Shown here: piece by piece, positions 724 to 16,025 of the stretch
Layout: every line of letters begins with the position of its first letter
Numbering within the stretch: position 1 is the stretch's first letter
Origin: an uncultured Gemmatimonadales bacterium
GTDB lineage: Bacteria; Gemmatimonadota; Gemmatimonadetes; Gemmatimonadales; GWC2-71-9
NCBI GenBank assembly: GCA_963828735.1
Contig: CAWHFW010000005.1
Location: 1,728,001-1,792,000, forward strand
Direction: 5' to 3'
Length of the DNA stretch: 64,000 nucleotides
Position numbers and translations under genes: made by a program
The notes under the pieces: generated by a model
What the model was told of the DNA's origin: nothing
The model's database searches: none
What the model saw: only the letters and a program-made list of their open reading frames with translations

Positions 724-810
724 CCAGGCTATCGCGGCTCCCCAGCTGCCACCGCCCACAAGAACTACCTCGAACGTGCGGCCGATCAGCGCCGCCAGAT
801 CCCTGGTCAC
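724..810 (-). pseudogene. Degenerate copy of the 5' end of the GlpD-like gene
   Basis: MTRDLAALIGRTFEVVLVGGGSWGAAIAW aligns without gaps to MSRDPAALAAGTFDVVVVGGGICGAAIAW (1..373), then similarity is lost. The GTG start overlaps the upstream stop (GTGA at 807-810). Confidence 0.7.
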
Positions 811-1220
811 GTGCTACTCCCGAATGCCTTGACGCGCGGCAGAGCGTGAGCGACGAACGCCGACGCCGCCAGGGTCTCAAGCACGCGACCCGCGAGCGGT
901 ACGGTCGAGCTGCCCCTCAACGTGCTGCTCAGTGCGACCAACAGGATGCCGGCGTTGAGCACCCAGAATGTCGCCCATGGAAGCCACGCGTTGCCGCGCT
1001 CGCTCCCCGTGCGAAAGCGCGGCAGGATCCAGTACGCCACTCCAATGACCAGCTGCACCGTCCAGCCGAACAGCAGCACCTCAGCGTGGACCGGACGGAG
1101 CCATGTCACCCAGGGGCCGTCGGCCAGCTCACGCCCCGCGAGGAGCACGGCGCCGAGCGTGATACCGACGGCCAGATAGATGAGCGAGGTCCGGATGAGC
1201 CAGACGCTGAGTCGCGGCAG
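807..1220 (-). CDS. Small 4-TM membrane protein (NnrS/heme-copper-oxidase-like repeat unit), probable CTG start
   Basis: Frame is open up to CTG at 1220 (LPRLSVWLIRTSLIYL...), matching the N-terminus of the paralog 1221..1634. Shared H-x5/6-GW-x2-Q-x3-GVAYW-x2-PR motif. Confidence 0.75.
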   Translation of the reverse strand: MPRLSVWLIRTSLIYLAVGITLGAVLLAGRELADGPWVTWLRPVHAEVLLFGWTVQLVIGVAYWILPRFRTGSERGNAWLPWATFWVLNAGILLVALSSTLRGSSTVPLAGRVLETLAASAFVAHALPRVKAFGSST

Positions 1221-1634
1221 CTAGCGCTCCTTGATCCGGGGCCAGGTATTGACGACGAAGCCCCACCCCGCGAGCAGCTGGAGCAGGGCGGACGCCGCCA
1301 GCACGCCTCCCGTGCTCTGACCGAGCGCGTGCAGCGGTTCGCCGGCGGCTCGAAGCAGGAGCCCGATGTTGAGCGATGCAAGCGTCACCCATCCGAGACG
1401 CTCGCTACCCCGAGGTCGCTCCGCGGAGTAGCGGGGAAACATCCAGTAGGCGACGCCGAAGATGACCTGGGTGATCCAGCCGACGACGAGCAGGTGGAGC
1501 CAGGTCGGATAGACGACCGCGACCACGGGATACTCGGCGCGGAGGTCCGGCGACTGGAGCAGGACGCCCAGCACCAGCGCGCCGCCAAGGTGAATCATGG
1601 CGGCGCGCAGGTACCAACGGGTCAGGGACGGCAC
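1221..1634 (-). CDS. Small 4-TM membrane protein, paralog of 807..1220
   Basis: MPSLTRWYLRAAMIHL...WLHLLVVGWITQVIFGVAYWMFPRY; four hydrophobic segments. Confidence 0.8.
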   Translation of the reverse strand: MPSLTRWYLRAAMIHLGGALVLGVLLQSPDLRAEYPVVAVVYPTWLHLLVVGWITQVIFGVAYWMFPRYSAERPRGSERLGWVTLASLNIGLLLRAAGEPLHALGQSTGGVLAASALLQLLAGWGFVVNTWPRIKER

Positions 1635-1640
1635 TTCAGA

Positions 1641-2699
1641 TCAAACGGTCGCCGGCTGCACCACGAGCGCCGTCACCATCCCGAACATCCCGTGCTCGGA
1701 TTCGGCGTGCGGCAGGATGTGGCAGTGGAAGGCCCAGGTGCCAGGGTTGGTGGCTTTCACCAGCACGTCCCACCGCTCGCCCGGCGCGATGTTGAGCGTG
1801 TCGCACTTCCACGGCGCCGGCTGGTCCCACCCGTCCTTGGCGATCACGGTCATGTGCATCCCGTGCAGGTGCATGGGGTGGATCAGCATCCCCTCGTTCA
1901 TGAACCGGATGCGCACGGTCTGGCCCATCTTGCAGACCACCGGCTCCGTGGCCGGAAAGCCCTTGCCGTTCAGTGTATAGCCGTGCGCGCCGTCGTTCAG
2001 CACCATCACGTAGTCCACGTCTGCCCGGTGCGCGGGGAGCGGCCGCTTCGGCTCGACGATGAACGCGCCCAGCAGCCCGTTGCCGACCTGGATCGCGGCG
2101 TTGTGATGCGAGTGATACATGTGCGAGCCGGCGTTGGGCACCGTGAACTCGTACGTGTAGCTCTCGCCCGGCTTGACCGGCGGCTGGGTGATGTACGGGA
2201 CCCCGTCCTGATCATTGGGCAGCTCGAGCCCATGGAAGTGGATCGACGTGGACTGTGAGAGCTTGTTGATCAGCTTCACGCGCACCCGATCGCCTTCCCG
2301 CACCCGGATCTGCGGCCCCGGCACCTGCCGGTTGTACGTCCACGCCCGGGCCTTCCGGCCCGGCTCGACTTCCCAGTCGATCTCCTCGGCGGAGAGCTCG
2401 TAGACCTTCACGCCTTTCTCGAGCCGCGGCTCGAGCAGCTGGTTGCCCTTGCCCTCGGTCTTGGCCGGAAACGCCTTTATTCCCTTCTCGTGCATGGCGT
2501 CCATCGCGTCGGCCTTCTGCCGAGGCGTGGACTCCGGCGGCGGGGCAGCCACCTTGGTGGTATCAGCCGGAGGGGCGGCGGCCTTGGTGTCGGCACATCC
2601 ACCCAGGCCGACCACAGCCGGGATGGCCACGGCGACGGCGCCCTTCTTCAGGAAGGCGCGGCGTGAAGTCGGATGGACCAGCGAGGAATGGTCGGACAC
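1641..2699 (-). CDS. Tat-exported two-domain multicopper oxidase (small laccase-like)
   Basis: SRRAFLK twin-arginine signal followed by GLGGC. Cu motifs IHFHG, YHSHH, HPMHLHG, HCHILPH...M. 352 aa fits two cupredoxin domains. Confidence 0.9.
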   Translation of the reverse strand: MSDHSSLVHPTSRRAFLKKGAVAVAIPAVVGLGGCADTKAAAPPADTTKVAAPPPESTPRQKADAMDAMHEKGIKAFPAKTEGKGNQLLEPRLEKGVKVYELSAEEIDWEVEPGRKARAWTYNRQVPGPQIRVREGDRVRVKLINKLSQSTSIHFHGLELPNDQDGVPYITQPPVKPGESYTYEFTVPNAGSHMYHSHHNAAIQVGNGLLGAFIVEPKRPLPAHRADVDYVMVLNDGAHGYTLNGKGFPATEPVVCKMGQTVRIRFMNEGMLIHPMHLHGMHMTVIAKDGWDQPAPWKCDTLNIAPGERWDVLVKATNPGTWAFHCHILPHAESEHGMFGMVTALVVQPATV

Positions 2700-2744: not shown

Positions 2745-2788
2745 AGTCTAGCGTGCTCTCCGTGAAGTCGGTGTGGGGGGATCCTGAA
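2745..2788 (-). promoter_or_regulatory. TTCA-repeat promoter cassette upstream of the multicopper oxidase
   Basis: Sense strand: TTCA ggatccc CCCA caccgac TTCA cggagagcacgc TAGACT. Confidence 0.65.
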
Positions 2789-2795
2789 GGTTTCT

Positions 2796-3797
2796 TCAGG
2801 CTCCGTGCGGAGTCAGCACCGCGGCGCCGAGCACCCGGCCCGACCGGACCCGATCCAGTGCGTCGTTCGCGGCGGCGAGCGGCATGGACTCGGTCGCGAT
2901 CTCGAGCGGGACCTCGGCCGCGATCCTGAGGAAGGTCTCCCCGTCGGCCCGGGTGAGGTTGGCGACCGAGCGCACCCGTCGCTCGCCCCAGAGCAGGTCG
3001 TACGAGAAGGAGGGGATCGGCGACATGTGAATGCCGGCGCAGACGACCGTGCCGCCCTTGTCGGTTGCCGAGAGGGCGGCCGGGACGAGCGCGCCCACGG
3101 GCGCGAAGATGATCGCGGCGTCGAGCGGCTCCGGGGGCCGCTCGTCGGAGCCACCCGCCCACTCGGCGCCGAGCTCGCGCGCGAAGCGCTGGCCGTCGGT
3201 GTCGCCTGGGCGGGTAAACGCGAAGACCCTCCGACCCTGGTGTCGCGCCACCTGCGTGATGATGTGCGCCGCCGCGCCGAAGCCGTAGATGCCGACGCGC
3301 TCGGCGTCACCGGTAGCGGCGAGCGAGCGGTAGCCGATGAGTCCGGCGCAGAGGAGCGGCGCCGCGTGCACCGCGTCGTAGGAGGAGGGAATCAGGAAGC
3401 AGTAGCGCTCGTCGGCCACGACGAACTCAGCGTAGCCGCCGTCGTGGTCATAGCCGGTGAAGCGGGCTCGGTCGCACAAATTCTCGCGCCCCGAGCGACA
3501 GAAGCGGCAGACGCCGCAGGTCCATCCGAGCCACGGCACGCCGACCAAGGTGCCCGGCTCGAAACGACGCGCGCCCTCGCCCGATCCCACAATCGCGCCC
3601 ACGATCTCATGACCCGGCACGAGCGGCAGCTTGGGGCGCGACAGCTCGCCGTCCACGATGTGGAGGTCGGTGCGGCAGACGGCGCACGCGCGCACCTCGA
3701 GCAACACCTGCCCCGGCCCGGGTTCCGGTCGGGGCACGTCGGTGATGTGGAGCGGTTGCCCGGGCGTGTGGAAGAGCGCGGCGCGCATGGTTGACAT
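2796..3797 (-). CDS. Zinc-dependent alcohol dehydrogenase (AdhP/CAD-like)
   Basis: CRTDLH, GHEIVG, structural Zn CGVCRFCRSGRENLC, GIYGFGAAA. Start at ATG 3797 or 3788. Confidence 0.92.
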   Translation of the reverse strand: MSTMRAALFHTPGQPLHITDVPRPEPGPGQVLLEVRACAVCRTDLHIVDGELSRPKLPLVPGHEIVGAIVGSGEGARRFEPGTLVGVPWLGWTCGVCRFCRSGRENLCDRARFTGYDHDGGYAEFVVADERYCFLIPSSYDAVHAAPLLCAGLIGYRSLAATGDAERVGIYGFGAAAHIITQVARHQGRRVFAFTRPGDTDGQRFARELGAEWAGGSDERPPEPLDAAIIFAPVGALVPAALSATDKGGTVVCAGIHMSPIPSFSYDLLWGERRVRSVANLTRADGETFLRIAAEVPLEIATESMPLAAANDALDRVRSGRVLGAAVLTPHGA

Positions 3798-3849
3798 GTG
3801 GGAAGATATCAGCAACCCTGCCACGCACCCGATCGGGGAGGAGATGGAC

Positions 3850-4329
3850 TCAGTCGCCTTGCGGGCCTGCCGGCAGGGCACCGGCGGCCGAGCGAATCTC
3901 ATCGTGGCGGATCTGTCCGCCGGACCAGGCGGTCCAGCCGATCAGCAACGAGGTTGCGGCGAGCGCCCCCCAGACAGCCCGCGGGAGCCAGGGTCCACTC
4001 CAGGCCTTGGCTCGAAGGGCAAGTGCGGCGGCCGCCAGGCCGCCCGTCACGAGCGCGGCCACCAGGCTCACGAGTGCCTGCTCCTCGTGGGCTTCGATGA
4101 GTGTCTTGGAAACCCACGGGGCGCGCTCGATCAGCTCCTCCGCCGGCTCACCGGTCAGGTAGATGAGCGCGGTCGCCGCTGCGAGCCCAATGACCAGCGT
4201 CAGAGACACGGTGGTCAATTCGCGGGAGCCGCGCAGGAGTCCAATCGTCAGCAGCAGCAGCAGGAGCGGCGTCCCGATCACCGGGACGTGATTCAGCATG
4301 AGATGAAGATGCGCGGCGTCGATGCCCAT
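3850..4329 (-). CDS. Membrane protein, DUF2231-like (conserved His)
   Basis: HLHLMLNHVP, TGEPAEE, IEAHEE, GGQIRH; four hydrophobic segments. Confidence 0.7.
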   Translation of the reverse strand: MGIDAAHLHLMLNHVPVIGTPLLLLLLTIGLLRGSRELTTVSLTLVIGLAAATALIYLTGEPAEELIERAPWVSKTLIEAHEEQALVSLVAALVTGGLAAAALALRAKAWSGPWLPRAVWGALAATSLLIGWTAWSGGQIRHDEIRSAAGALPAGPQGD

Positions 4330-4411
4330 GGGAGATCACCAGGTTCAGCCTCGAGTGGGGCGAGAGGAGATTGCCGTCCAACGGTGACGAAGCGGCAACC
4401 CCCTCGCATTT

Positions 4412-4813
4412 TCACAGCCTGCCGGTGGCGACCGCGCGGACAATGTCCGTCGTGGAGATGATGCCGACAACATGGTCGCCCTCGGCTACGAAGAGCCGGT
4501 GCACCTCGGCGTAGAGCATCTGGCGCGCGGCTTCACGAAGGTCTTCGCCCGGCGCGATGGTGAACGGGCGCGGAGTCATGATGTCCCGTACCGGCGTATT
4601 CTCCAACAGGGACTCGCGGGCGGCGCGATCATCTGCCTCGGCTTCCGCGGTCAGCACGTCGGTGGTCGAAAGGACGCCGATGACTCTTCCGGTGCCATCC
4701 ACCACCGGCATGCCCGAAATGTGCTCGTCCGCCAGAGCGACAATAGCCTCGGCGAGGCTGGCTTCGCTCGGTACCGACTTGACGTTGCGCTGCATGAGTT
4801 CGGCGACCGTCAT
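4412..4813 (-). CDS. CBS domain pair protein
   Basis: MTVAELMQRNV...ISGMPVVD...VIGVLSTTD and VRDIMT...VVGIISTTD; GAGGA RBS before ATG 4813. Confidence 0.9.
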   Translation of the reverse strand: MTVAELMQRNVKSVPSEASLAEAIVALADEHISGMPVVDGTGRVIGVLSTTDVLTAEAEADDRAARESLLENTPVRDIMTPRPFTIAPGEDLREAARQMLYAEVHRLFVAEGDHVVGIISTTDIVRAVATGRL

Positions 4814-4840
4814 GGTATCCTCACGGTGGAGGTCACGCAC

Positions 4841-4884
4841 AACATGCGGTGGGACGGCTGAATCCAGCGTGAAGGACGCATGAA
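4841..4884 (-). promoter_or_regulatory. TTCA-repeat promoter cassette upstream of the CBS gene
   Basis: Sense strand: TTCA tgcgtcc TTCA cgctgga TTCA gccgtcccaccg CATGTT; three perfect repeats at 11-bp period. Confidence 0.75.
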
Positions 4885-4955
4885 ACGACCTTCCCAGATC
4901 CGCGCGCGGGATGACACCCCTCTTTCGAAACTCCCACTCGTCGAGGATCTGGGGC

Positions 4956-4981
4956 AACAAAAACCCGGGTGGGAACCCGGG
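4956..4981 (-). terminator. Intrinsic terminator downstream of hsp20
   Basis: Minus strand CCCGGGT-tccc-ACCCGGG followed by TTTTTGTT. Confidence 0.7.
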
Positions 4982-5003
4982 CTACTGAGGGGAGCAGTGG
5001 GAC

Positions 5004-5459
5004 TTACTTGATCAGGATCTTGGTCGCGGCCAGTGGCGTCTCCTTGGGGAGATGCAGCACCAGCAGGCCATCCCGATACTCGGCCGCCACCTTCTTCTCG
5101 GCCACCGGCTTGGACAGGCGGATCGTGCGGACAAACTTCCCGATCGCGCGCTCCTTCACCAGATAGCCTTCGCCCTCGAACTCTGGAGCGAACTCCCTCG
5201 TGCCGGTGATGATCAGCAACTCACCGGTGAGGTTGACGTCCAGGTTCTCCTTGTGGATGCCGGGCACCTCGAGGCGGACCACATACTCCGTGGGGGTCTC
5301 GATCATGTCCATCACCGGGATCCACTCCGCCCCCGTGGTCTCGAACGGGAATGGCGGCACCGGCTCCGTCAGGAACCGCGGGACCAGCAGTCGATCGAAC
5401 ACCCGATCGAACTCCTCGCCCAGCTTCCCCACCATGGGGTTCCGCAGTGCAACTCGCAT
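5004..5459 (-). CDS. Hsp20/alpha-crystallin small heat shock protein
   Basis: WIPVMDMIET...VRLEVPGIHKENLDV...ERAIGKFVRTIRL...AEYRDGLLVLHLPK; GGAGG RBS before ATG 5459. Confidence 0.92.
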   Translation of the reverse strand: MRVALRNPMVGKLGEEFDRVFDRLLVPRFLTEPVPPFPFETTGAEWIPVMDMIETPTEYVVRLEVPGIHKENLDVNLTGELLIITGTREFAPEFEGEGYLVKERAIGKFVRTIRLSKPVAEKKVAAEYRDGLLVLHLPKETPLAATKILIK

Positions 5460-5487
5460 AACACCTCCTGGTTTGAACTGCGTCGCC

Positions 5488-5531
5488 AACATAGCACTCG
5501 CCCCATGATGCCAGGATGAAACCCGCGTCAA
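5488..5531 (-). promoter_or_regulatory. TTCA-repeat promoter cassette upstream of hsp20
   Basis: Sense strand: TTGA cgcgggt TTCA tcctggc ATCA tggggcgagtgc TATGTT. Confidence 0.65.
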
Positions 5532-5582
5532 GAAGCCCTCATTCGTCGCTCACCTGCTCATTTCGTGTCCTTGGTGGGATTC

Positions 5583-5626
5583 TTCCCACCCGATTCACCG
5601 TTTCTTAAGGGTGACGGCCCTATGAT
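5583..5626 (+). promoter_or_regulatory. TTCA-repeat promoter cassette upstream of the 5655 gene and USP
   Basis: TTCC cacccga TTCA ccgtttc TTAA gggtgacggccc TATGAT. Confidence 0.7.
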
Positions 5627-5654
5627 GGAGCCCAGACCACACCGGGAGGACGCC

Positions 5655-6149
5655 ATGTCCGCCGTCGCATCGCCCGTCTATGTCGGATCCACTGAGGAAA
5701 CCCTCGACGCCGTCCTCGCGCCCACTCACGATACGTGGGTCAACGAGGCGCGGCACCTGCTGGGCTCGGCGTCGGCGCCCGGCGCGCCGGATTGGAAACG
5801 GTGGACGACGGTGCGCTGGCTCAACGATCAGTTCCTGCGCTGGTTCCTGGCCGAGTGGGCGCTCCTGAACGAGCTCCGGCCGCACCTGACGATCCGCGAA
5901 GACGAGATGATCGGCGCGGGCGAAGAGCAGATCGCCCAGCTCCGCGTGGCGCTCGACCGGGTGGCCCGGCGTCGTGGCAGCGCGGCCGAATTCACCGCGC
6001 TGGCGCAGAGATTTCTGCAGGCGCTCGAAATGTGGTGCGCCGAATGTGAGCTGGCGGCGCGCCGGATCCACTGCCGGTACCTGTCGCGCGATGCGCGACG
6101 GCTGCTCGAGGACGTGGAGGCCGCGTCGGGCGTACAGCCGCACATGTGA
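5655..6149 (+). CDS. Hypothetical helical protein, paralog of 7401..7850
   Basis: GGAGGA RBS before ATG 5655. HDTWVNEAR...WKRWTTVRWLNDQF...RRRGSAAEF is similar to the 7401 protein. Confidence 0.75.
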   Translation: MSAVASPVYVGSTEETLDAVLAPTHDTWVNEARHLLGSASAPGAPDWKRWTTVRWLNDQFLRWFLAEWALLNELRPHLTIREDEMIGAGEEQIAQLRVALDRVARRRGSAAEFTALAQRFLQALEMWCAECELAARRIHCRYLSRDARRLLEDVEAASGVQPHM

Positions 6150-6193
6150 AACGCGCCGAAGCGGTGCGCCGGCACTCAACGTCGAGGTGATTC

Positions 6194-7198
6194 ATGTCGA
6201 TCAACGCATCGCAGTTTCGCTCCATCCTGGTGCCGCTGGACGGCTCGCCGCTCGCGGAGCGGGCGCTCGCCGTCGCGGCCAGGATCGCGCAGGCGGGAAA
6301 CGGGAGTCTCGCCCTGGCGCTGGTGCACGAGCCCCCGCCGATCCCGTTCGATAAGCCGGACCCTGCGCTGGTGGCCTCCGGAGAGGCGGCCGTGGCGCGC
6401 GCCGAGGAGACCTATCTCACGGGCATCGAGACGCGGCTCCGCGGAGACGGCACCCCGGTGTCCTCCGCGACGATTCTGACCGGCGAAGTCGGACCGTGCC
6501 TCGCCGATCAGGCGCGGTCGCTCGGTGTCGACCTGGTCGTGATGCCGACACATGGCCGGGGCGGCGTGCAACGCCTCTGGCTGGGAAGCGTCGCCGACTA
6601 TCTCGTGCGTCATCTCGACGTTCCGGTGCTGGTGTTGCGGGCGGGCGAGGTCGCCGATCGCGTGAACGCGACGTCAGCCGCTACGCAGCTGCTCGTGCCA
6701 CTCGATGGTTCACCGCTGGCCGAAGAGGCGCTGGCTCCGGCGGCGGAGCTCGCGCGGCTCTCCGACCTCGAGCTCAGCTTGCTGCAGGTCGTCCGTCCCG
6801 TCGCGTTCGTCACCGAGCCCGGCCTCACGCTCCCGACTGCCTACGACCGGGAGCTCACGGACAGCGTGGTGGATCAGGCCAGGGACTACGTTCGGGATCT
6901 GGTCGAGGACCTGCGGGCGCGCGGTTTCCGGGCGACGGGTTCCGCGGTGATCGGATGGAACCCGGTCGACACGATTCTCGAGATCGCGCGCCCCGAGCAG
7001 GTCGCCATGGTGGCGCTGGCGACTCATGGGCGGGGCGGAATGACGCGCCTCGCGCTCGGCAGCGTGGCCGACGAGCTGATCCGGGCCGCGCGCGTCCCGG
7101 TGCTGGTCATGCGGCCGACACTCATCGGGCGCGCGGGCGCCGAAAGCCCCGCAGTCGCAACCGGCGCAGCTGAGCCGCTGCCTCTCCGTTCTCGATGA
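6194..7198 (+). CDS. Universal stress protein, tandem USP domains
   Basis: Two ILVPLDGSPLAE motifs and two THGRGG...LGSVAD motifs. Confidence 0.93.
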   Translation: MSINASQFRSILVPLDGSPLAERALAVAARIAQAGNGSLALALVHEPPPIPFDKPDPALVASGEAAVARAEETYLTGIETRLRGDGTPVSSATILTGEVGPCLADQARSLGVDLVVMPTHGRGGVQRLWLGSVADYLVRHLDVPVLVLRAGEVADRVNATSAATQLLVPLDGSPLAEEALAPAAELARLSDLELSLLQVVRPVAFVTEPGLTLPTAYDRELTDSVVDQARDYVRDLVEDLRARGFRATGSAVIGWNPVDTILEIARPEQVAMVALATHGRGGMTRLALGSVADELIRAARVPVLVMRPTLIGRAGAESPAVATGAAEPLPLRSR

Positions 7199-7203
7199 CA
7201 CCA

Positions 7204-7231
7204 ATGGGGCCGTCCAAGTGGACGGCCCCAT
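7204..7231 (+). terminator. Perfect hairpin after the USP gene
   Basis: ATGGGGCCGTCCA-ag-TGGACGGCCCCAT, 5 nt after the stop; weak U-tract. Confidence 0.6.
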
Positions 7232-7328
7232 ATTGACCCTGCCTCCCGTCTTGCGGGTACGCTTTTCTCGTGCACCGCTTTCGCATCCTTGCGGGGGATC
7301 GCTTCACGCGGGCGCACGCGAAGGCTCC

Positions 7329-7372
7329 TTCTCCGTCTCTTCACCCTTCCTTCATCCTCGCGAGTGTAGTCT
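7329..7372 (+). promoter_or_regulatory. TTCA-repeat promoter cassette upstream of the 7401 gene
   Basis: TTCT ccgtctc TTCA cccttcc TTCA tcctcgcgagtg TAGTCT. Confidence 0.75.
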
Positions 7373-7400
7373 CGAATCGTCACTCGAGCCGAGCGAACCA

Positions 7401-7850
7401 ATGACCGTACCGAACACGACATCCTTCCCGGGTGCGGAGCTCTCCGGCTTCCACCGCTTGTGGATCACCGAGGCCCGTCGCTTCCTCGCTCCGGCGCTCG
7501 TATCAGGTGCCGACTTCTGGACGCGATGGGCCGCGGTCCGGTATCTGTCCGACGATTTCCGGGACCGCCACGCCACGGAGCTCGTGCTGATGCATCGGCT
7601 CCGGCCTGTGCTCGCCGAGGACGTCGCGGCACGACTCGTCACTGGTGGCGATGGGGTCTTCCACCTCCGGCTGGAGGCGGATCGTATCGGACGCCGCAGG
7701 GGAACGGCCAAGGAATTCGCCGAAGGCGTAGGGGCGCTGCTGGAGCGGCTGGAAACGTGGCTCGAGGAGATCGATCGGGCCGCCGCCGAGCTCTCTCCGG
7801 AATCCCCGATGCCGGCACCGCCGACACCGCTCCACGCCGGGACGCCATGA
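7401..7850 (+). CDS. Hypothetical helical protein, paralog of 5655..6149
   Basis: HRLWITEAR...FWTRWAAVRYLSDDF...RRRGTAKEF; ATG 7401 lies just downstream of the promoter cassette. Confidence 0.75.
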   Translation: MTVPNTTSFPGAELSGFHRLWITEARRFLAPALVSGADFWTRWAAVRYLSDDFRDRHATELVLMHRLRPVLAEDVAARLVTGGDGVFHLRLEADRIGRRRGTAKEFAEGVGALLERLETWLEEIDRAAAELSPESPMPAPPTPLHAGTP

Positions 7851-7895
7851 CACGCACACCACATCCTTCCGCTCGACCCTCGTGCCGCTCGACGG

Positions 7896-9815
7896 TTAAG
7901 CGCTCACCGAGTTGGCGCTGCCCTCGGCCAGCTCGCCGGCGACCGCACCGGCTTCTACTCCGGGGCTGCTCGACGATGGTTGCTCCTCGAAGGTAGCCCG
8001 GAGCGCGTTGAGGATCACCGCCACGTCGATCGCCTCTTGTAGCAGCGCGCCCGCGATCGGCGGGATGTAGCCGAACGCCGCCGCGATCATCGCGAGACCG
8101 CTCAGCCCGAGCCCCGCCCAGATGCTCTGCCGCGCCAGCCGAAGCGTGCGGCGGCTGATGGCGATCGCCTGGCGGAGCAGGGTCGGGTCGTCAGCCAGGA
8201 GGACGGCGTCCGCTGCCTCCGCGCTGATGCCACCGCCGCCGCTGGCGAGCGCGACACCCACCGTGGCGCTGCTGAGCGCCGGCGCGTCGTTGGTACCGTC
8301 GCCCACCATCAGCACCCGCTCACCTTCTTTCACCAGCCGCTGGATGTAGGCGACTTTCTGTTCCGGCAGCAGGTCACCGTGAGCCTCCTCGATTCCGACG
8401 GCGTGCGCGACCGCCGAGGCGTTGGCCTGCTCGTCGCCGGAGAGGAGCAGCGTGCGGCGCACGCCGAGCCGGCGGAGGTCAGCCATGAATCGACCGACAC
8501 CCGGCCGGAGTCTGTCGGCGTACTCCACCACCCCGGCACCGTGTCCATCCACGGCGACGTAGGCGCGGAGCCCGGGCCCGCCGTTCCCGCCCAACGCCGA
8601 GTGCAAGCCCGCCTCGGCTTGGGGTGCCTGGCGGGTAACGAACGCCCAGCCGCCCACGTTGATCCTGCGACCGTCGACCTCGCCGGTCACGCCCTCGCCG
8701 GGTGTCTCGATGATCTCTCGCGCCTCCGGTAGCTCGATGCCCCGTGCCACCGCCTCGTCCACGAGCGTGCGTGCGAGCAGGTGGCCGGAGCCGCGCTCGA
8801 CCGCTCCGGCGAGTTGCAACACCTCCATGGGCGTGAACGGCGCGGTCGCGAGGACGCGCGCGACCTGCGGACGGCCGATCGTCAGCGTACCGGTCTTGTC
8901 GAACACGGCCACCGTGATCCGCGAGAGCTGCTCGAGCGCCGTGCCGTGCCGCACGATGATCCCGTGGCGGGCCGCGCAGTTGATTCCGCCCACGATCGCG
9001 ACGGGCGTGGCGAGAATGAGCGGGCACGGCGTGGCGACGACCAGCACCGCGAGCAGGCGCGTTGGATCCCGCGTGACGAAATACACCGCGGCGGCCACCA
9101 GCAGGGTGAGGGGCGTGAACCAGACGGCATAGCGGTCGGCCAGCCGCTGCAGCGGGGACTTGCTCTCCTGTGCCGTGCGCACCAGCTCGACGATGCGCGC
9201 ATACTGACTCTCCCGCGCCGGTGCGGCAGCGCGCACGGTCAGCGGCCCATCCAGGTTGAGGCTCCCGCTCAGGAGTCGGGTCCCGGCCGTGGCCGTCAGG
9301 GGGAGCGGCTCGCCAGTGAGCCGCGCCGTGTCCACGTGCGAGCGGCCCTCGAGCACGACCACGTCGCACGGCACCAGCTCCCCGGGCCGGACCAGGAGCT
9401 CGTCGCCCACGGCCACGGCGTCCACCCCTACGTCCTCGAGGCCGGCGGCGGCGATTCGATGCGCCAAACGCGGCGCGGCAGCCTCCAGGTCGTGCACTGC
9501 CCGCGAAGCACGACCCTCGGCGTAGCGCTCGAGCGCCTCGCCTCCCGTCTGCATGAGGACCACGATGAGGCCCGCCAGGGGCTGGCCGAGGAGAAGGGCG
9601 GTGACGATGGCGAGCATCGCCACCAGATCGGCGGCGAATCGGCCGGCGGCGACGCCGCGGAGCGTCCGCCAGACGACCGGGAGTCCGGTCGCGGCCAGCC
9701 CGATCGCCCACGCGAGAGTCGCCGCCTCGGGTGAGACCGCGACACGGATGATCAGGCCGAGAACAATCGCGAGCAACGCAGCCGCGGGCAGGCGGACCCC
9801 ACCGCGACGGGGCAT
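7896..9815 (-). CDS. Heavy-metal P1B-type ATPase, P1B-5 (PCP motif) subtype
   Basis: LTGE, ATPCPLILA, DKTGTLT, MVGDGTNDAPAL, LLQEAIDV; no N-terminal HMA domain. Confidence 0.9.
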   Translation of the reverse strand: MPRRGGVRLPAAALLAIVLGLIIRVAVSPEAATLAWAIGLAATGLPVVWRTLRGVAAGRFAADLVAMLAIVTALLLGQPLAGLIVVLMQTGGEALERYAEGRASRAVHDLEAAAPRLAHRIAAAGLEDVGVDAVAVGDELLVRPGELVPCDVVVLEGRSHVDTARLTGEPLPLTATAGTRLLSGSLNLDGPLTVRAAAPARESQYARIVELVRTAQESKSPLQRLADRYAVWFTPLTLLVAAAVYFVTRDPTRLLAVLVVATPCPLILATPVAIVGGINCAARHGIIVRHGTALEQLSRITVAVFDKTGTLTIGRPQVARVLATAPFTPMEVLQLAGAVERGSGHLLARTLVDEAVARGIELPEAREIIETPGEGVTGEVDGRRINVGGWAFVTRQAPQAEAGLHSALGGNGGPGLRAYVAVDGHGAGVVEYADRLRPGVGRFMADLRRLGVRRTLLLSGDEQANASAVAHAVGIEEAHGDLLPEQKVAYIQRLVKEGERVLMVGDGTNDAPALSSATVGVALASGGGGISAEAADAVLLADDPTLLRQAIAISRRTLRLARQSIWAGLGLSGLAMIAAAFGYIPPIAGALLQEAIDVAVILNALRATFEEQPSSSSPGVEAGAVAGELAEGSANSVSA

Positions 9816-10513
9816 CAGCGGGCGGGCGAGATCTCCGCGTCGCTGCCCCGACGCAAGCTGAAGCCCACGCCGCGGACGGTCGTGAGCAGCGGCTCGCCCG
9901 CCGCCTGCATCAGCTTCCTGCGGAGGTTGCCCACGTGCACGTCCACCACGTTGCTCTCCGGATCGAAGTGCATGTCCCAGACCTTCTCCAGGAGCGTGGT
10001 GCGGCGGACGACCTCCTCGGGGCGCAGCAGGAAGTACTCGAGGAGCTGGAATTCCTTCGGGGTGAGGTCGAGGCGCTCGTCGTTGACGGCGGCGACGTGG
10101 CGCAGCCGGTCGAGCGTGAGCGGGCCGTACCGGAGCGTCTCGAGGCGCTCCGCGCCGCCGCGGCGGTGGAGCGCCCGGATGCGCGCCAGCAGCTCGTCGA
10201 AGCGGAACGGCTTCGACAGATAGTCGTCGGCCCCGGCATCGAGCCCCCGCACCACGTCTTCCACCGCATCCCGCGAGGTGAGCATCAGGATGGGCGTGTT
10301 GCGCCCCTCCCGCCGGAGCTCGGTCGCGACCTGGAATCCGTTCTTCTTCGGCAGCACGATGTCGAGCAGGATCACGTCGTACTCGTAGACGTGGGCCAGC
10401 ATGGTGGCCTCCTCGCCGTCTGGCGCGACGTCCACCACGTAGCCCTCTTCCTTCAATCCCTGCTCGATGAATCCCGCGACCTTCCGGTCGTCTTCCACGA
10501 CGAGGATTTTCAT
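9815..10513 (-). CDS. OmpR/PhoB-family response regulator
   Basis: KILVVEDD, LLDIVLP, GADDYLSKPF; winged-helix region LTPKEFQLLEY...SNVVDVHVGNLRRKL...TVRGVGF. Confidence 0.95.
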   Translation of the reverse strand: MKILVVEDDRKVAGFIEQGLKEEGYVVDVAPDGEEATMLAHVYEYDVILLDIVLPKKNGFQVATELRREGRNTPILMLTSRDAVEDVVRGLDAGADDYLSKPFRFDELLARIRALHRRGGAERLETLRYGPLTLDRLRHVAAVNDERLDLTPKEFQLLEYFLLRPEEVVRRTTLLEKVWDMHFDPESNVVDVHVGNLRRKLMQAAGEPLLTTVRGVGFSLRRGSDAEISPAR

Positions 10514-10519
10514 GGGCTC

Positions 10520-10563
10520 AATGTACGGGCGGCCATCTGAACGCGGCCGGAATCGTTCGTGAA
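10520..10563 (-). promoter_or_regulatory. TTCA-repeat promoter cassette upstream of the response regulator (autoregulation candidate, leaderless)
   Basis: Sense strand: TTCA cgaacga TTCC ggccgcg TTCA gatggccgcccg TACATT, then 6 nt to ATG. Confidence 0.72.
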
Positions 10564-10570
10564 GGGTTCT

Positions 10571-11812
10571 TCATGATTGAGGTGTCGCCGGGAGCTCCAG
10601 CACGAACTGGCCTCCCTGACCCGGGCGGCATACGGCGCGGAGCTCCCCACCCAGCAGGCGCGCCAGCCGCCGGGAGAGCGGGAGGCCAAGACCAGCGCCG
10701 CGGCTGTCACCGCCCGCCTTGGTAACGTAGATGTCGAAGATCCGCTCCAGCTCGGCCTCGGGCACGCCCGGCCCTTCGTCCTCCACCACGTACTCGATCT
10801 TCGCCCCGCGGTCGGTGATCCGCACGCGGACGGTGCTGGCTTGCGCCGTGTGACGGATCGCGTTGCCCAGCAGGTTCACCAGGATCTGCTCCAATCGACT
10901 GCTGTCGGTGTCGCAGCTCGGCAGGCCGGCGGGCGCTTGCAGCTCCAGCCTGACCTGGCGGGATTCGGCCGCGGGCGTCACGCGGCCGAAGGCGTGCCGA
11001 ACGACAGAGGCGGGCTCGACCGACCGGATCACGGGATTGAGCCGGTCCTCGTCGAGCCGACTGAGGTCGAGCAGATCGTTGATGAGGGCGATGGCGTGCT
11101 GCGCGGAGTCGAGCACCTCGAACGCCGCCCGCGGCACCGTGGCGGGGTCCTTCTTGCGGACCAGCATCTCGGACCAGCCGAAGACCGCCGCGAGCGCGTT
11201 CCGGAGCTCGTGGTTCACCATGGCGAAGAACCGCTCGCGGGTCCGATGCAGCGCCTGCACCTCTTCCAGCAACCGAGCGCTCTCCTCGTGCAGGCGGGCG
11301 TTCTGGACGGCCGCCGCCGTGATGGCCGCGAGCAGCACCGCCATGTGCTCGTCCCGGTCGGTGAACGCCGGCTCATCGATCTTCTCGGTGAGGTACAGGT
11401 TTCCGAAGACTCCCCGCCGGCCCACGATCGGCACGCCCAGGAACGAGCGCATCGGCGGGTGATGGGGTGGAAAGCCGTAGGAATCGGGATGCCGGGTCAG
11501 ATCGGGGAGCCGGATCGGACGGGCCTCGCGGATCACCAGGCCCAGGATGCCGTGCCCGCGCGGTAGTGGCCCGATCAGCTCCCGCTCCTCGTCGCTGATA
11601 CCGTGGGTGGTGAAGCTCTCGAGCACGCGGCCGTCGGGCGCCAGCACGCCGATTGCCGCGTAGTGCGCACCGATCACCTCGGCCGCGACCTGAACGACGC
11701 GCTGCAGCACCCCGTCCAGCGACAGCTCGGTGATGAGGGCCGACGTGGCGATGATCAGGTGCTCGAGCCGCGGGTCGGCGCCGAGATCTGTGCGGGTCGC
11801 TGAATCGGTCAT
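10571..11812 (-). CDS. Soluble sensor histidine kinase with DosS/DosT-like GAF domain
   Basis: GILGLVI...PIRLPDLTRHPDSYGFPPHHPPMRSFLGVPI...FGNLYLTEK; HisKA NHELRN; NLLGNA, DEGPG, GLGL boxes; no TM segment. Confidence 0.9.
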   Translation of the reverse strand: MTDSATRTDLGADPRLEHLIIATSALITELSLDGVLQRVVQVAAEVIGAHYAAIGVLAPDGRVLESFTTHGISDEERELIGPLPRGHGILGLVIREARPIRLPDLTRHPDSYGFPPHHPPMRSFLGVPIVGRRGVFGNLYLTEKIDEPAFTDRDEHMAVLLAAITAAAVQNARLHEESARLLEEVQALHRTRERFFAMVNHELRNALAAVFGWSEMLVRKKDPATVPRAAFEVLDSAQHAIALINDLLDLSRLDEDRLNPVIRSVEPASVVRHAFGRVTPAAESRQVRLELQAPAGLPSCDTDSSRLEQILVNLLGNAIRHTAQASTVRVRITDRGAKIEYVVEDEGPGVPEAELERIFDIYVTKAGGDSRGAGLGLPLSRRLARLLGGELRAVCRPGQGGQFVLELPATPQS

Positions 11813-11859
11813 GAGAGAAAGGTACGGCCGGCCCCCGACTGCGGAACCCCATCGGGAGA

Positions 11860-11903
11860 TTCCGAGGGGTTTCATCTTTTCTTCACCCCCGCTCCGCTAG
11901 CCT
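11860..11903 (+). promoter_or_regulatory. TTCA-repeat promoter cassette upstream of the second USP
   Basis: TTCC gaggggt TTCA tcttttc TTCA cccccgctccgc TAGCCT, then 8 nt to ATG 11912. Confidence 0.75.
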
Positions 11904-11911
11904 GTTCCACC

Positions 11912-12733
11912 ATGAATGGCTCCTTGAATGGCTCCTTGCATGTCCGGCGGGTGATGGCCGCGACGGACGAGTCGGGCGCGGGTCGGCAGGCGGTCGCCAC
12001 CGCCCTGCAGGTCGCTCGGCGGGCCTCCGCGCACGCCACGATCCTCCGGGTCCTGCCGTTCGACGGCACCGCGTCGCGGGGTGCCGCCGAACAGCTCCAG
12101 CGTTGGGTCGAGTCGGATCTGCCCTCGCCGCTGCCGCCGCTCCCGATCGAATACGCCGTGGGCTACGGCCTTCCAGGAATCGAGATCCCCCGCGCCGCCG
12201 AGCGCATGCGCGCGGATCTGCTCGTACTCGGCCGGAACCAGCGCTCGCAGGCCATGCGCCTGCTGCTGGGCGACACCGCAGACGCAGTCGCCCGGCGGAG
12301 CCGAATCCCGTGCCTGTTCGTGCCGGCATACTCGGGGCGTACGCGCCGGGTGCTGGTTGCGGTGGACGGCTCCGGGCGGGGGACGGCCGTCCTGCGGGTC
12401 GCGAACGACTTCGCGGGGCAGCTGGGCGCCGACCTGCGGGTTCTGACCGTCGAGCGGGTCCACGCCGGCGAGCCTGCCGAGCTCGCGGCGGGTGTCCCGG
12501 CGACACGCAGCACGAGCATCCAGGCGGACGTGAACCAAACGCTCGCGCGCGGGCTGGACGTGCGCCGCGGCGACGCGGCGGCGGAGATCCTCGCGGCCGT
12601 CGAGGAGCAGGCCCCTGATGTGCTCGTGATCGGCTGCCACCGCGGCGGGCCGGCGGGCGTGATCGAGGCTGGCAGCACCGCCCGGAAGGTGATCCACCAG
12701 GCGCCGTGCGCGGTGCTCACGGTGCCGTTGTAG
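11912..12733 (+). CDS. Universal stress protein, tandem USP domains
   Basis: VMAATDES...LLGDTADAVARRS; VLVAVDGS...GSTARKVIHQAPCAVLTVP. Confidence 0.88.
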   Translation: MNGSLNGSLHVRRVMAATDESGAGRQAVATALQVARRASAHATILRVLPFDGTASRGAAEQLQRWVESDLPSPLPPLPIEYAVGYGLPGIEIPRAAERMRADLLVLGRNQRSQAMRLLLGDTADAVARRSRIPCLFVPAYSGRTRRVLVAVDGSGRGTAVLRVANDFAGQLGADLRVLTVERVHAGEPAELAAGVPATRSTSIQADVNQTLARGLDVRRGDAAAEILAAVEEQAPDVLVIGCHRGGPAGVIEAGSTARKVIHQAPCAVLTVPL

Positions 12734-12745
12734 CCGGGCGCTGCC

Positions 12746-13141
12746 CTAGGTCCCCCTCAAGAGATCTTCGACCGTCCGATCGCGGAAGAACGCGGTGACG
12801 CGCTCGCTCACCGACTTCCACTCGTGGTGCGCAGGGCAGGGGTTCCGGTCGCTGCACTGCGGGCGGCCGAGCAGGCAGCGACGCTCGGCCGAGATCCCGT
12901 CGAACGGCGCGACGACCCGGAGCAGCTTGAGCCGGTCCGGTGGGACCGCCAGCCGGAACCCGCCGCCCTTGCCGCGAGTGGAGAGCAGCACCCCCTCGCG
13001 GGCCAGCCGGTGCAGGGTCTTCGACAGGTAGTTGCGGGGGATTTGAAGCCGCTGGGCGATCTCGTCGGCCCGGGCGGCTTCGTCGCGGTCGGCCAGGAAC
13101 AGGACCGTCCGGAGGGCGTATTCAGCGGTCTGGGACAGCAC
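12746..13141 (-). CDS. Rrf2-family Fe-S transcriptional regulator
   Basis: LSQTAEYALR, YLSKTLHRL...STRGKGGGFRL, C-x6-C-x5-C-x2-H; GTG start at 13141 preferred. Confidence 0.92.
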   Translation of the reverse strand: MLSQTAEYALRTVLFLADRDEAARADEIAQRLQIPRNYLSKTLHRLAREGVLLSTRGKGGGFRLAVPPDRLKLLRVVAPFDGISAERRCLLGRPQCSDRNPCPAHHEWKSVSERVTAFFRDRTVEDLLRGT

Positions 13142-13190
13142 GGTAGTCTCGGGGTCGGAATGGGAACGATCCTTTCCCCGGAAATTAATC

Positions 13191-13208
13191 ATATCCTCAT
13201 GATGATAT
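13191..13208. promoter_or_regulatory. AT-rich imperfect palindrome, candidate Rrf2 operator
   Basis: ATATCcTCA-TGAtGATAT in the Rrf2/nosZ divergent intergenic region. Confidence 0.5.
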
Positions 13209-13268
13209 CAAGATACTTGTCGCGACCCTCCTCGCAGGTTCGAGGGTCACGGCGGGTGTGAAGAAAGG

Positions 13269-13312
13269 CTCACGGCCGGTTCACGGTCCGCCGTGCCCGG
13301 CCCTCGTAGGTT
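13269..13312 (+). promoter_or_regulatory. TTCA-repeat promoter cassette upstream of nosZ
   Basis: CTCA cggccgg TTCA cggtccg CCGT gcccggccctcg TAGGTT; same register as the other seven, third unit degenerate. Confidence 0.58.
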
Positions 13313-13351
13313 CCGCCGCAACGACCAGTCCCACACGCAGGAGGACCACCG

Positions 13352-15388
13352 ATGTCGCGCCGCACCTTTCGCATTCCCGGTTCGCTCGCGCTGCTTGCCG
13401 GCAGCGCCATCCTCGCCACAGGCTGCGGCTCGGCGAATGCCACGCGGCTCGGCGAGGCGAGCGACGCTGCCCAGCGGGTCTACGTCGCCCCTGGCAAATA
13501 CGACGAGTTCTACGCCTTCATGTCTGGCGGGTTCGACGGCCAGGTCGGGGTGTACGGCCTGCCGTCCGGCCGGCTCCTCAAGCACGTGCCGGTCTTCTCG
13601 CAGAGCACGGAGAACGGTTGGGGCTACAGCGAGCAGACGAAGCCCATGCTGATGACCAGCTACGGCTTCGTGCCGTGGGACGACGCCCACCATCCGCAGC
13701 TCAGCCAGACCGACGGCGTACCCGACGGCCGCTGGTTGTTCATCAACGGCAACAACACGCCGCGCATCGCCCGGCTCGAGCTCACGAAGTTCGAGACCGA
13801 GGAGATCCTCGAGATTCCCAACAGCGCCGGCAACCACAGCTCGCCGTTCGTCACCGAGAACAACGAGTACGTCGTCGCGGGTACCCGGTTCAGCGTGCCG
13901 GCGCCGCAGCGGGACGTGTCGATCGACGAGTACAAGGAGGCCTTCGCGGGCACGCTCACCTTCGCTCGGGTCGACAGCGCGACCGGCCACATGACGATCG
14001 CGTTCCAGATCCGGCTGCCGGCGTTCGACTACGATCTCTCGCACGCGGGCAAGGGGCCGTCGCACGGCTGGTCCTTCTTCACCAGCTACAACAGCGAGGA
14101 AGGGAACACCAAGCTCGAGGTGAACGCCTCCCAGAAGGACAAGGACTACATCGCGGCGATCAACTGGAAGCAGGCCGAGCAATGCGTCGCGCAGGGCAAG
14201 GCCACGACCGAGCCGGCCCGCTATGCCCACAACGTGATGGGTGGGGACGGGATCGCGCGGACCGAGTGGGGCACCAGCGTCAAGGTGCTGACGCCCGCCG
14301 CGTGCCCGGGACTCGCCTACTTCCTGCCGACGCCCAAGAGCCCGCACGGCGTGGACGTGGATCCGACCGGCGAGTACATCGTGGCGGGCGGCAAGCTCGC
14401 GACGGTGATCCCCGTGCACAGCTTCTCGAAGATGCAGAAGGCGATCGCTGACCGGGCGTTCGCGGGCGAGGACCACGGCATCCCGGTGCTCAAGTACGAG
14501 GCCACGGTGGCGGGCGAAGTGCAGAACCCCGGGCTGGGCCCGCTCCACACCGAGTTCGACGGGAAGGGCAACGCCTACACCTCGATGTTCCTGAGCTCCG
14601 AGATCGTGAAGTGGAGCCTCAAGACGTTCAAGGTGCTCGACCGCGCACCGACCTACTACTCGATCGGCCACCTGATGATCCCGGGCGGCGACAGCCGGAA
14701 GCCATGGGGCAAGTACGTCCTCGCCCTCAACAAGATCACCAAGGACCGCTACCTGCCGACCGGCCCGGAGCTGGCGCAGTCGGCGCAGCTCTACGACATC
14801 AGCGGCGACCGGATGAAGCTGCTGTCCGACTTCCCGACCATCGGCGAGCCGCACTACGCCCAGGCGCTGCCGGCGGCGATGATCAAGGACCGCCAGCTCA
14901 AGATGTATTCGCTCAAGGAGAACCAGGACCCGTGGGCGGCCAAGAACGAAAAGGTGACGCGGGTGGAGCGGAAGGGCAGCGTCGTGCACGTGGTGATGAC
15001 CTCGGTCCGCAGCCACTTCATGCCCGACAAGATCGAGGGAATCCAGGTGGGCGACTCGGTCTACTTCCACCTCACCAACCTCGAGCAGGACTGGGACGTG
15101 CCCCACGGCTTCGCGGTGCTGGGCAACAACAACTCCGAGCTGCTGATGATGCCGGGCCAGACGCGCACGTTGGCGTGGGTGCCGAGCCGGCCCGGGATCT
15201 ATCCCTTCTACTGCACCGACTTCTGCTCGGCGCTGCACCAGGAGATGCAAGGCTACATCCGGGTGTCCCCGAAGGGCGCGAAGGTCGCGGTCAAGTGGAA
15301 CAGTCCGAGCTACCACGAGGCCGAGGGTGAGCACGAGGAGCACGAAGTCGCTCGGGCAGGACGAGACCATGAACGCGACAGCAATTGA
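13352..15388 (+). CDS. nosZ: Nitrous-oxide reductase, clade II, lipoprotein
   Basis: CuZ ligands DAHHP, GNHS, SPHG, GPLHT, IGHL, EPHY; CuA PHGF...CTDFCSALHQEM; clade II N-terminus YVAPGKYDEFYAFMSGG; lipobox LATGC. Confidence 0.97.
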   Translation: MSRRTFRIPGSLALLAGSAILATGCGSANATRLGEASDAAQRVYVAPGKYDEFYAFMSGGFDGQVGVYGLPSGRLLKHVPVFSQSTENGWGYSEQTKPMLMTSYGFVPWDDAHHPQLSQTDGVPDGRWLFINGNNTPRIARLELTKFETEEILEIPNSAGNHSSPFVTENNEYVVAGTRFSVPAPQRDVSIDEYKEAFAGTLTFARVDSATGHMTIAFQIRLPAFDYDLSHAGKGPSHGWSFFTSYNSEEGNTKLEVNASQKDKDYIAAINWKQAEQCVAQGKATTEPARYAHNVMGGDGIARTEWGTSVKVLTPAACPGLAYFLPTPKSPHGVDVDPTGEYIVAGGKLATVIPVHSFSKMQKAIADRAFAGEDHGIPVLKYEATVAGEVQNPGLGPLHTEFDGKGNAYTSMFLSSEIVKWSLKTFKVLDRAPTYYSIGHLMIPGGDSRKPWGKYVLALNKITKDRYLPTGPELAQSAQLYDISGDRMKLLSDFPTIGEPHYAQALPAAMIKDRQLKMYSLKENQDPWAAKNEKVTRVERKGSVVHVVMTSVRSHFMPDKIEGIQVGDSVYFHLTNLEQDWDVPHGFAVLGNNNSELLMMPGQTRTLAWVPSRPGIYPFYCTDFCSALHQEMQGYIRVSPKGAKVAVKWNSPSYHEAEGEHEEHEVARAGRDHERDSN

Positions 15389-16025
15389 CGTGAAGCCGGG
15401 CGGGCTCAGCGCCCGCCCGGCGGCCCCGCCGGCTCAGGCGCGCGGCATGCGGCGTCTGTCGCAGGGGGTCGTCGCCGTGGCGTCGCTGATGCTCCTCGCG
15501 GTCTACGTGGCGCCGCTCTGGGTCATCCGCCTGGTGGCGCCGCAGTACCCGGAGGGCCTCGGACTGCTGATCTGGGTGAACCGGATCACGGGGCTTGGCC
15601 CGAACGACCTCAACAGCATCAATGGGCTCAACCACTACATCGGGATGCGCCCGATCGACCCGGCCTCGATTCCCGAGCTGCGGCTCATGCCCGGCCTCGT
15701 CGCGGCCGCGATCGTCGCGGGGCTGCTGGTCGCGCTGATCGGCCGGCGGCCGCTGCTCTACGTCTGGGCGGTGCTGTTCACGATCGGAGCCGCGCTCGGG
15801 CTCGGCGACTTCTGGCACTGGGGCTACGAGTACGGCCATCAGCTCGACCCGCATGCCGCGATCAAGGTGCCCGGGATGAGCTACCAGCCGCCGGTCATCG
15901 GCAGCAAGGTACTGCTCAACTTCCACGCGACCTCGTGGCCCGGCCTCGGCGGGTGGATGGCCATCCTGTCACTCGGGTGCGTCGCCACCGTCGCGGTGCT
16001 CGAGTGGCGGAGACGCCATGGGTAG
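15369..16025 (+). CDS. nosB: NosB membrane protein of clade II nos clusters
   Basis: PLWVIRLVAPQYPEGL, INGLNHYIGM, WGYEYGHQLDPHAAIKVPGMSYQPP; directly after nosZ. Confidence 0.85.
   Translation: MNATAIDVKPGGLSARPAAPPAQARGMRRLSQGVVAVASLMLLAVYVAPLWVIRLVAPQYPEGLGLLIWVNRITGLGPNDLNSINGLNHYIGMRPIDPASIPELRLMPGLVAAAIVAGLLVALIGRRPLLYVWAVLFTIGAALGLGDFWHWGYEYGHQLDPHAAIKVPGMSYQPPVIGSKVLLNFHATSWPGLGGWMAILSLGCVATVAVLEWRRRHG

Follow-up and report, generated by a model that had tools for sequence, protein, structure and literature searches.

The stretch of DNA analysed here, referred to as the window, comprises 64,000 nucleotides from an uncultured Gemmatimonadales bacterium (C5:1728001-1792000 of a 4.78-Mb genome), whose genes were called with a codon model made for this analysis (4286 genes), so that start positions are approximate. 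Eight promoters of this window share a DNA element, here termed the cassette, which precedes genes for stress proteins, a multicopper oxidase, a two-component response regulator and a clade II nitrous oxide reductase (nosZ). The regulator, of the OmpR family, is encoded at 9815-10513 on the minus strand, with a soluble sensor kinase immediately upstream (10571-11812, minus strand) and a P1B heavy-metal ATPase directly behind it (7896-9815, minus strand).

The complete element consists of TGAAG-N4-CTTCA, a TTCA at +11, another TTCA at +22, a spacing of 12 nt and a -10 hexamer. At 2745-2798 (minus strand) it has a degenerate unit 2 between the palindrome and unit 3, ends in the hexamer TAGACT, and heads the genes for a two-domain multicopper oxidase and two small membrane proteins with weak COX1 matches (807-2699, minus strand). 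The minus-strand genes at 2796-5459 encode a zinc alcohol dehydrogenase, a DUF2231-like protein, a CBS protein and Hsp20, the latter two with cassettes of their own: that of the CBS gene (4841-4894, minus strand) reads GGAAG, three TTCA and CATGTT, and that of Hsp20 lies at 5488-5541 (minus strand). On the plus strand, the genes at 5655-7850 encode a four-helix protein of 164 amino acids, a tandem universal stress protein (USP) and a 149-amino-acid paralogue of the first; one cassette (5573-5626) precedes the first two genes and another (7319-7372) the paralogue. The regulator gene is preceded by a perfect TGAAG-N4-CTTCA in its cassette (10520-10573, minus strand), and a second USP gene (11912-12733, plus strand) by direct repeats only, without the inverted half-site (11850-11903, plus strand). 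The eighth cassette (13259-13312, plus strand) reads TGAAG-N4-GCTCA and TTCA, lacks unit 3, ends in TAGGTT and precedes the nos operon at 13352-18778, from which an Rrf2-family regulator is transcribed divergently (12746-13141, minus strand).

Cassette architecture and the genome-wide regulon

The original prediction had placed eight 44-nt cassettes in this region, each oriented with its downstream gene and each with a hexamer exactly 12 nt after unit 3 (TAGACT, CATGTT, TATGTT, TATGAT, TAGTCT, TACATT, TAGCCT and TAGGTT), and it is borne out at every position. Its description of the site as a box of direct repeats stands in part: the in-phase direct repeats are there, but an inverted repeat is also present, as in sites of the AgrR/CopR type. 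This inverted half-site, TGAAG, lies 10 nt upstream of unit 1 and ends four bases before the C of CTTCA. At the oxidase and regulator promoters its TGA doubles as the stop codon of the gene upstream, the alcohol dehydrogenase gene (2796-2798) and the kinase gene (10571-10573) respectively. A stop-codon artefact was considered and rejected, as the coincidence holds for two of the eight window sites and for none of 24 sites outside the window.

A matrix iterated from the eight window sites was used to score the whole genome and, as a control, the reversed genome; at a score of at least 20 it finds 32 sites in the former and none in the latter. An independent matrix, built from 25 sites outside the window only, gives the eight window cassettes scores of 16.1 to 36.0 and finds 32 sites of at least 16, against a mean of 0.8 in order-2 Markov simulations of all intergenic DNA. 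The motif is therefore not a product of chance. When a matrix of the three units and the -10 is applied with each site left out in turn, seven of the eight window sites come among the 22 best of 9.6 million positions. Shifting the -10 by 1-3 nt reduces the sites scoring at least 25 from 29 to 3-14. One signal emerges in the outside sites without having been selected for, namely TGAAG: 9 of 24 sites chosen without those columns match it in at least four of five positions (1% expected), and an A at -7 is present in 16 of the 24 best sites (p 8e-8). Nearly all sites scoring at least 20 (31 of 32) overlap no called gene, and 22 have a same-strand start no more than 92 nt away.

In the window itself, the matrix returns the eight cassettes and one AT-rich match at 13174, which counts among the 32 and is discussed below, so the earlier remark that no other cassette was noticed in the window holds. 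The idea of a regulon confined to one island does not, as most of the 32 sites, about 23, are found elsewhere in the genome. Among the 63 proteins scanned at these outside loci are a USP, a third copy of the helical-bundle protein, OmpW, DUF302 and DUF542 proteins, a CheB-like protein, a flavodoxin operon, a sulfatase, three Kelch-repeat genes and an oxidoreductase of the Acg family scoring over the family cut-off. The three paralogous helical-bundle proteins, of 150-165 amino acids and without a Pfam family, each stand behind a cassette (5655-6149, 7401-7850 and L001:11717-12205). The two in the window are confidently predicted as helical bundles. They may be hemerythrin-like (Atlas lead 0.87), a family of four-helix bundles with His/Glu di-iron ligands; a single His is nearly invariant in them, and a fold comparison of the 164-amino-acid protein gave no clear match. 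In a subclass of sites (C5:386648, C5:2461902, C2:54978, C6:96432, C5:510910 and C5:2457913), unit 2 reads CTCA and unit 3 TT--; three of these precede Kelch-repeat genes.

Each promoter class keeps its own layout in relatives: the regulator and oxidase promoters combine the palindrome with unit 3 (the oxidase orthologues as at 2745-2798), USP promoters have three direct units, and nos promoters have the palindrome and unit 2.

Regulator, sensor kinase and copper-type sisters

The protein encoded at 9815-10513 contains a receiver domain with Asp51 and a Trans_reg_C domain (PF00072 and PF00486, both over cut-off), placing it in the OmpR/PhoB family, and resembles copper regulators. It had been proposed to read the cassette, and the distribution of the motif points to it as the likely binder. 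Among 40 relatives in a first comparison set, 20 carry an orthologue, defined by at least 74% identity. The exact three-unit pattern is found in 19 of these 20 and in 2 of the 20 relatives without an orthologue (a backwards control gave one match in 41 genomes), and the palindrome plus unit 3 is found in 16 of 20 and in the same 2 of 20. Of the two exceptions, G017 carries its sites on a contig of 4 kb whose first bases fall within the ATPase gene that usually follows the regulator, and G040, which is 87% complete, has sites and no regulator match. The genome encodes five OmpR-family regulators, and only this one has a cassette at its own promoter. A 46%-identical paralogue was rejected as the binder because its 8-kb locus has no site; four genomes of the same genus with only that paralogue show no match to the pattern. 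The putative recognition helix is identical in 33 of 36 orthologous rows.

The suggestion of autoregulation is likewise supported by the promoter itself. With alignment anchored on the regulator start codon, the palindrome (at most two mismatches) begins 59-62 nt upstream in 35 of 40 orthologues, these being the rows of at least 74% identity, own genome included, among 43 in total. This distance places the start codon 7-8 nt after the -10 (the ATG at 7 nt here) and the centre of the palindrome near -53.5, so that the regulator mRNA is predicted to be leaderless. In a wider draw of 200 genomes of the phylum, of at least 90% completeness, 97 belong to the same family; 81 of the 97 have the orthologue, and in 77 of the 81 the kinase lies directly upstream, within 150 nt. 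The regulon is real, conserved and family-wide. Two genomes carry the kinase-regulator pair in two copies each (L017 and L018 in G007; L027 and L046 in G004).

The kinase combines one GAF domain (residues 30-170) with a HisKA domain from residue 192 and an HATPase domain, where DosS and DosT have GAF-A and GAF-B in tandem; it has no strongly hydrophobic segment (maximum 1.6). That the GAF domain is of the DosS/DosT type, as first suggested, is supported by its best solved relatives, which are the mycobacterial entries 2vzw (E 2e-45; presumably the DosT GAF domain, its file naming only a probable histidine kinase) and DevS/DosS GAF structures, over a range of E 2e-45 to 3e-35. His118, Tyr140 and Gly55 align with DosS His149, Tyr171 and the Glu87 position, which is Gly in DosT, and are invariant in all 120 homologues listed of 3157 found. 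In DosS, His149 and Tyr171 are described as the proximal and distal haem residues (PMC4082495). Kinases of this type are also found apart from the regulator: the one in L078 follows an NtrC-like regulator and the one in L043 stands by itself. Of the best 80 kinase loci of the genome collection, 21 come from Gemmatimonadota, every one of them a metagenome-assembled record, and 59 from actinobacteria; no cassette of at least 14 was found in 58 of the actinobacterial loci (838 kb).

The nearest sisters of the regulator are of the copper type. Its best family model is that of the heavy-metal regulators CusR/CopR/CzcR, TIGR01387 (232 bits, under the cut-off of 279). Sister regulators of 56-68% identity are accompanied by a membrane kinase in 15 of 17 loci and by efflux, oxidase or P1B genes in 12 of 17, while 14 of the 17 loci carry the same cassette geometry, often with CTTAA; in two more sister-type loci the cassette directly precedes TolC- and membrane-fusion-like genes. 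In regulators of 50-60% identity the palindrome becomes TGACA/TGACG-N4-xGTCA or TGTAA. In a quick tree of 46 rows with open basal nodes, the 36 GAF-linked regulators form a group (SH-aLRT 97) that excludes two copper-type ones. Four distant loci (L073, L074, L077 and L078) have a divergent two-subunit haem-copper oxidase, putatively ba3-type, after the regulator and a second kinase, and in L077 a globin-like gene follows as well. Six distant loci keep a membrane kinase behind the regulator, and the two of these kinases that were tested have a metal-kinase model as their best match, under cut-off.

It could accordingly be proposed that the same regulator and sites still answer to copper or another metal, with nosZ included as a copper enzyme. 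The heavy-metal family match and the sister loci favour this, as do the multicopper oxidase and P1B ATPase among the targets here; moreover, CopR from Corynebacterium is reported to bind TGAAGATTTnnTGAAGATTT, whose reverse complement has CTTCA at an 11-nt period (PMC3140484). The operator does show the inverted repeat with a 4-nt spacer and in-phase direct repeats of metal regulators, but the pairing with a membrane metal-sensing kinase and efflux genes, seen in the sisters, is not found here: the adjacent kinase is of the GAF-HisKA kind, lacks a strongly hydrophobic segment and keeps the haem residues. The genome has no sister membrane kinase, the best match (28-38%) sitting in the operon of the 46% paralogue; no efflux system is found among the annotated targets, and two genomes with only a copper-type sister have no site before nos. 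A metal signal is for these reasons considered unlikely. The simplest reading is a rewiring from copper to gas sensing, with this direction inferred.

The nos promoter and Rrf2

The nos operon consists of nosZ, a 218-amino-acid gene in the nosL position without a family match, nosD, an ABC ATPase and an ABC permease. NosZ belongs to the Sec-dependent clade II family (TIGR04246, 928 bits against a cut-off of 625), and TIGR04247 is also matched in the operon over cut-off (439 bits). At 22079-25371, 3 kb beyond nos, lie genes for a sirohaem-type nitrite/sulfite reductase and for a chelatase-methylase fusion, without a cassette.

The inclusion of nosZ in the regulon, part of the original prediction, is supported by conservation of the site before nos in relatives, but the site is not the full three-unit one that had been described, unit 3 reading CCGT. 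When left out of the matrix it ranks 1167th genome-wide on units and -10, and 48th with the inverted half-site added. Of the first 40 relatives, 13 possess nosZ. The head of the nos operon carries a site in all ten of these that have the system (one scoring only 15.0), five times before a nosZ of the close type and five times before a distant type of 47-49% identity; the three without the system have no site of at least 10 before nos. In the phylum draw, where 54 of the 97 same-family genomes have nosZ, 82 other genomes with the gene were available, of which 76 were scanned after setting aside four already examined and two without upstream DNA. With a matrix made without this genome's nos sites, a cut-off of at least 14 and a range of 3 kb, a nos site is present in 32 of 50 regulator-bearing genomes and in none of 26 others (backwards controls 1/50 and 2/26), a contrast mostly between one family and the rest, as only 2 of the 26 are of the same family, so that kin are not independent. 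In relatives the site usually heads a gene for a cytochrome c or a cupredoxin-like protein that precedes nosZ.

The absence of an FNR/DNR box before nosZ, noted from the start, was confirmed: between 13141 and 13352 the best matches have four mismatches for FNR, whose consensus is of the TTGAT-N4-ATCAA type, and three for TTGA-N6-TCAA. More broadly, no FNR, DNR/Nss, CRP or NsrR box better than two mismatches was found before nosZ. A CRP-like candidate with two mismatches was rejected, as it is the cassette's own palindrome. Both Crp-family proteins of the genome lack an N-terminal cysteine cluster.

A second regulator of nos is suggested by the predicted Rrf2 operator at 13185-13206, the palindrome WTWATCAY-N6-ATGATWAW. 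At up to three mismatches it occurs in 19 of the 30 nos loci that adjoin an Rrf2 gene and in 3 of the 45 that do not, a comparison that is partly circular because the consensus was drawn from some of the same loci. The matrix match at 13174, considered as a second nos promoter, was rejected as being this operator. At up to two mismatches the genome has two such palindromes; the other, in L014 near 4621 (C5:1716621), precedes a CocE/NonD hydrolase gene and may be due to chance. In five relatives the operator starts 29 nt after the start of the palindrome and covers unit 3 and the -10, the position of a repressor. The palindrome is a candidate operator for the Rrf2 proteins found next to clade II nos operons (loci L138-L213), including those of genomes without the two-component system. 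In G025 (L035), another genome without this system, the space between nosZ and a divergent Rrf2-like gene holds a palindrome that resembles the NsrR box, which would be a different control.

These findings raise the alternative that the island regulon is real while nosZ here is mainly under Rrf2, its weak cassette contributing little. The nosZ cassette has the lowest score of the eight, with the Rrf2 operator 53 nt upstream of it. A divergent Rrf2 gene is found in 12 of the 18 regulator-bearing relatives without a scoring nos site, Rrf2 and its operator also precede nos in the regulator-less genomes G161 and G079, and scaffolds with clade II nos genes are reported to be enriched in Rrf2 genes (PMC6264515). 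On the other side, the palindrome and unit 2 are conserved ahead of two distant nosZ types as well as of nos operons without a nearby Rrf2 gene; in three of the relatives without a scoring site the palindrome is perfect and the Rrf2 operator overlies unit 3 and the -10, an arrangement consistent with activation combined with repression; and in the present genome the operator is situated towards Rrf2 and does not reach the nos -10. Control by Rrf2 in the main is thus improbable: nosZ is probably a direct target of the OmpR-family regulator and jointly controlled by it and Rrf2.

Proposed mechanism and comparison with known systems

The reading preferred here, and held to be likely, is that a regulator of the copper-type (CusR/CopR/AgrR) group has been rewired to a DosT-like gas sensor and activates a low-oxygen regulon that includes clade II nosZ. 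The soluble kinase would bind haem in its GAF domain through His118; a fall in O2, or binding of NO or CO, would trigger autophosphorylation at His201 and phosphorylation of the regulator at Asp51. The cassette would serve as the activator site of the phosphorylated regulator, recruiting sigma70 polymerase to a bare -10, and the regulator would amplify its own expression through the leaderless mRNA. About 30 promoters would then respond, comprising DosR-like stress genes and the nos operon, the latter probably also repressed by Rrf2.

Several observations weigh against this reading. The motif alone does not tell the signal, as sisters with membrane kinases use the same cassette before efflux genes, and in six distant loci the GAF kinase, the regulator and a membrane kinase follow one another. 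Of the 32 sites, several head genes for Kelch-repeat or other secreted proteins, without an obvious role in hypoxia. As for signal transduction, AgrR is reported to be able to act unphosphorylated (PMC7380067), and GAF-B, missing from this kinase, is described as shaping ligand discrimination in DosS (PMC4082495). At nosZ the site is the weakest of the eight (16.1 with the outside-only matrix), the phylum contrast is largely one between kin, and 18 of the 50 regulator-bearing relatives have no nos site of at least 14, 12 of them with a divergent Rrf2 gene, one with only 109 nt of sequence and five with neither. Soil RNA was available as contigs only, from 11 runs with a share of at most 0.10, and the four examined gave no transcript starts or ends; one contig (run X5, five differences) covers 13207-13528 and so crosses the nosZ start predicted near 13319, although DNA carry-over is possible.

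A sensor that mainly reads NO, CO or the redox state rather than O2 depletion is a still less probable alternative. DosS and DosT are reported to be most active with NO or CO bound (PMC4082495), a DUF542 gene is among the targets and GAF-B is absent; yet the variant with Gly in place of Glu87 has been reported, in a disputed result, to bind O2 stably (PMC4082495), and behind the regulator the distant loci encode a haem-copper oxidase of two subunits and a globin-like protein. Reading of the cassette by another factor, such as an alternative sigma factor or an unrelated dimer on the palindrome, is very unlikely: binding by the regulator is predicted and G040 has sites without a regulator match, but the co-occurrence, the site at the regulator's own promoter, the nearly invariant recognition helix and a half-site drift that follows regulator divergence (CTTCA, CTTAA, xGTCA) all argue against it.

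A broader scenario, at present more doubtful than not, would have this Gemmatimonadales family arrive at a dormancy-type regulon separately from mycobacteria, through a DosT-like haem sensor put before a copper-resistance two-component operon. Since intermediates still have both kinases on one regulator, that regulator may in this scenario combine O2 and a metal signal and so time the making of the copper enzyme NosZ, with two unrelated nosZ types each recruited and Rrf2 acting as a second gate. The system is in any case a clear candidate for signal rewiring, in which a copper-type regulator and operator geometry would be reused for gas sensing. Bacteria with clade II N2O reduction count among the important sinks of this gas, yet the control of their nosZ is little studied, the described cases being of the Crp/Fnr type (PMC11539149); for this family a candidate sensor, regulator, operator and co-regulator can now be named. 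Since the whole set of parts can be reassembled in a laboratory host, what switches these bacteria to N2O removal is open to direct testing. Searches of listings and abstract openings in a limited literature collection returned no description of this system or motif.

Genes for USPs, Hsp20, CBS and Acg-family proteins belong to the DosR regulon, and the same classes are found among the targets here. As far as sensor and targets go the system works like DosRS, without belonging to that group; its regulator and operator are of the copper-regulator kind. The sensor shares with DosS/DosT a haem-type GAF domain with equivalents of the proximal His and distal Tyr (PMC4082495), but it has one GAF domain instead of two and a HisKA kinase core, and its regulon includes nosZ. 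DosR belongs to the NarL family, whereas the partner here is of the OmpR family in 77 of 81 genomes and has a different site.

Known nosZ regulation by Crp/Fnr proteins (DnrD, FnrP/NNR, NssABC; PMC11539149) also ties the gene to low O2 or nitrogen oxides; in the present case, with no such box before nosZ, a two-component system and Rrf2 would take that place. ArcA from Escherichia coli is likewise an OmpR-family regulator of a large regulon, with two to five half-sites at 11-bp spacing, but it is described with a different sensor and without an inverted pair (PMC3798270), and the position relative to the -10 is fixed here. CopR from Corynebacterium glutamicum shares the CTTCA core and the 11-nt period, a likeness of site sequence; it is reported to have one site in its genome, a direct repeat only, and a copper signal (PMC3140484). 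The closest operator architecture is that of AgrR from Cupriavidus metallidurans and of CopR/PcoR, with an inverted repeat of 4-nt spacing, in-phase direct repeats, autoregulation and a poor -35, and for AgrR both kinds of repeat are reported to be needed for activation at poor -35 promoters (PMC7380067). The half-site here is CTTCA instead of ATTACA and its centre is predicted at -53.5 instead of -43.5 or slightly further up, and where AgrR controls metal efflux, the present system joins a soluble haem-type kinase to stress and N2O genes (PMC7380067).

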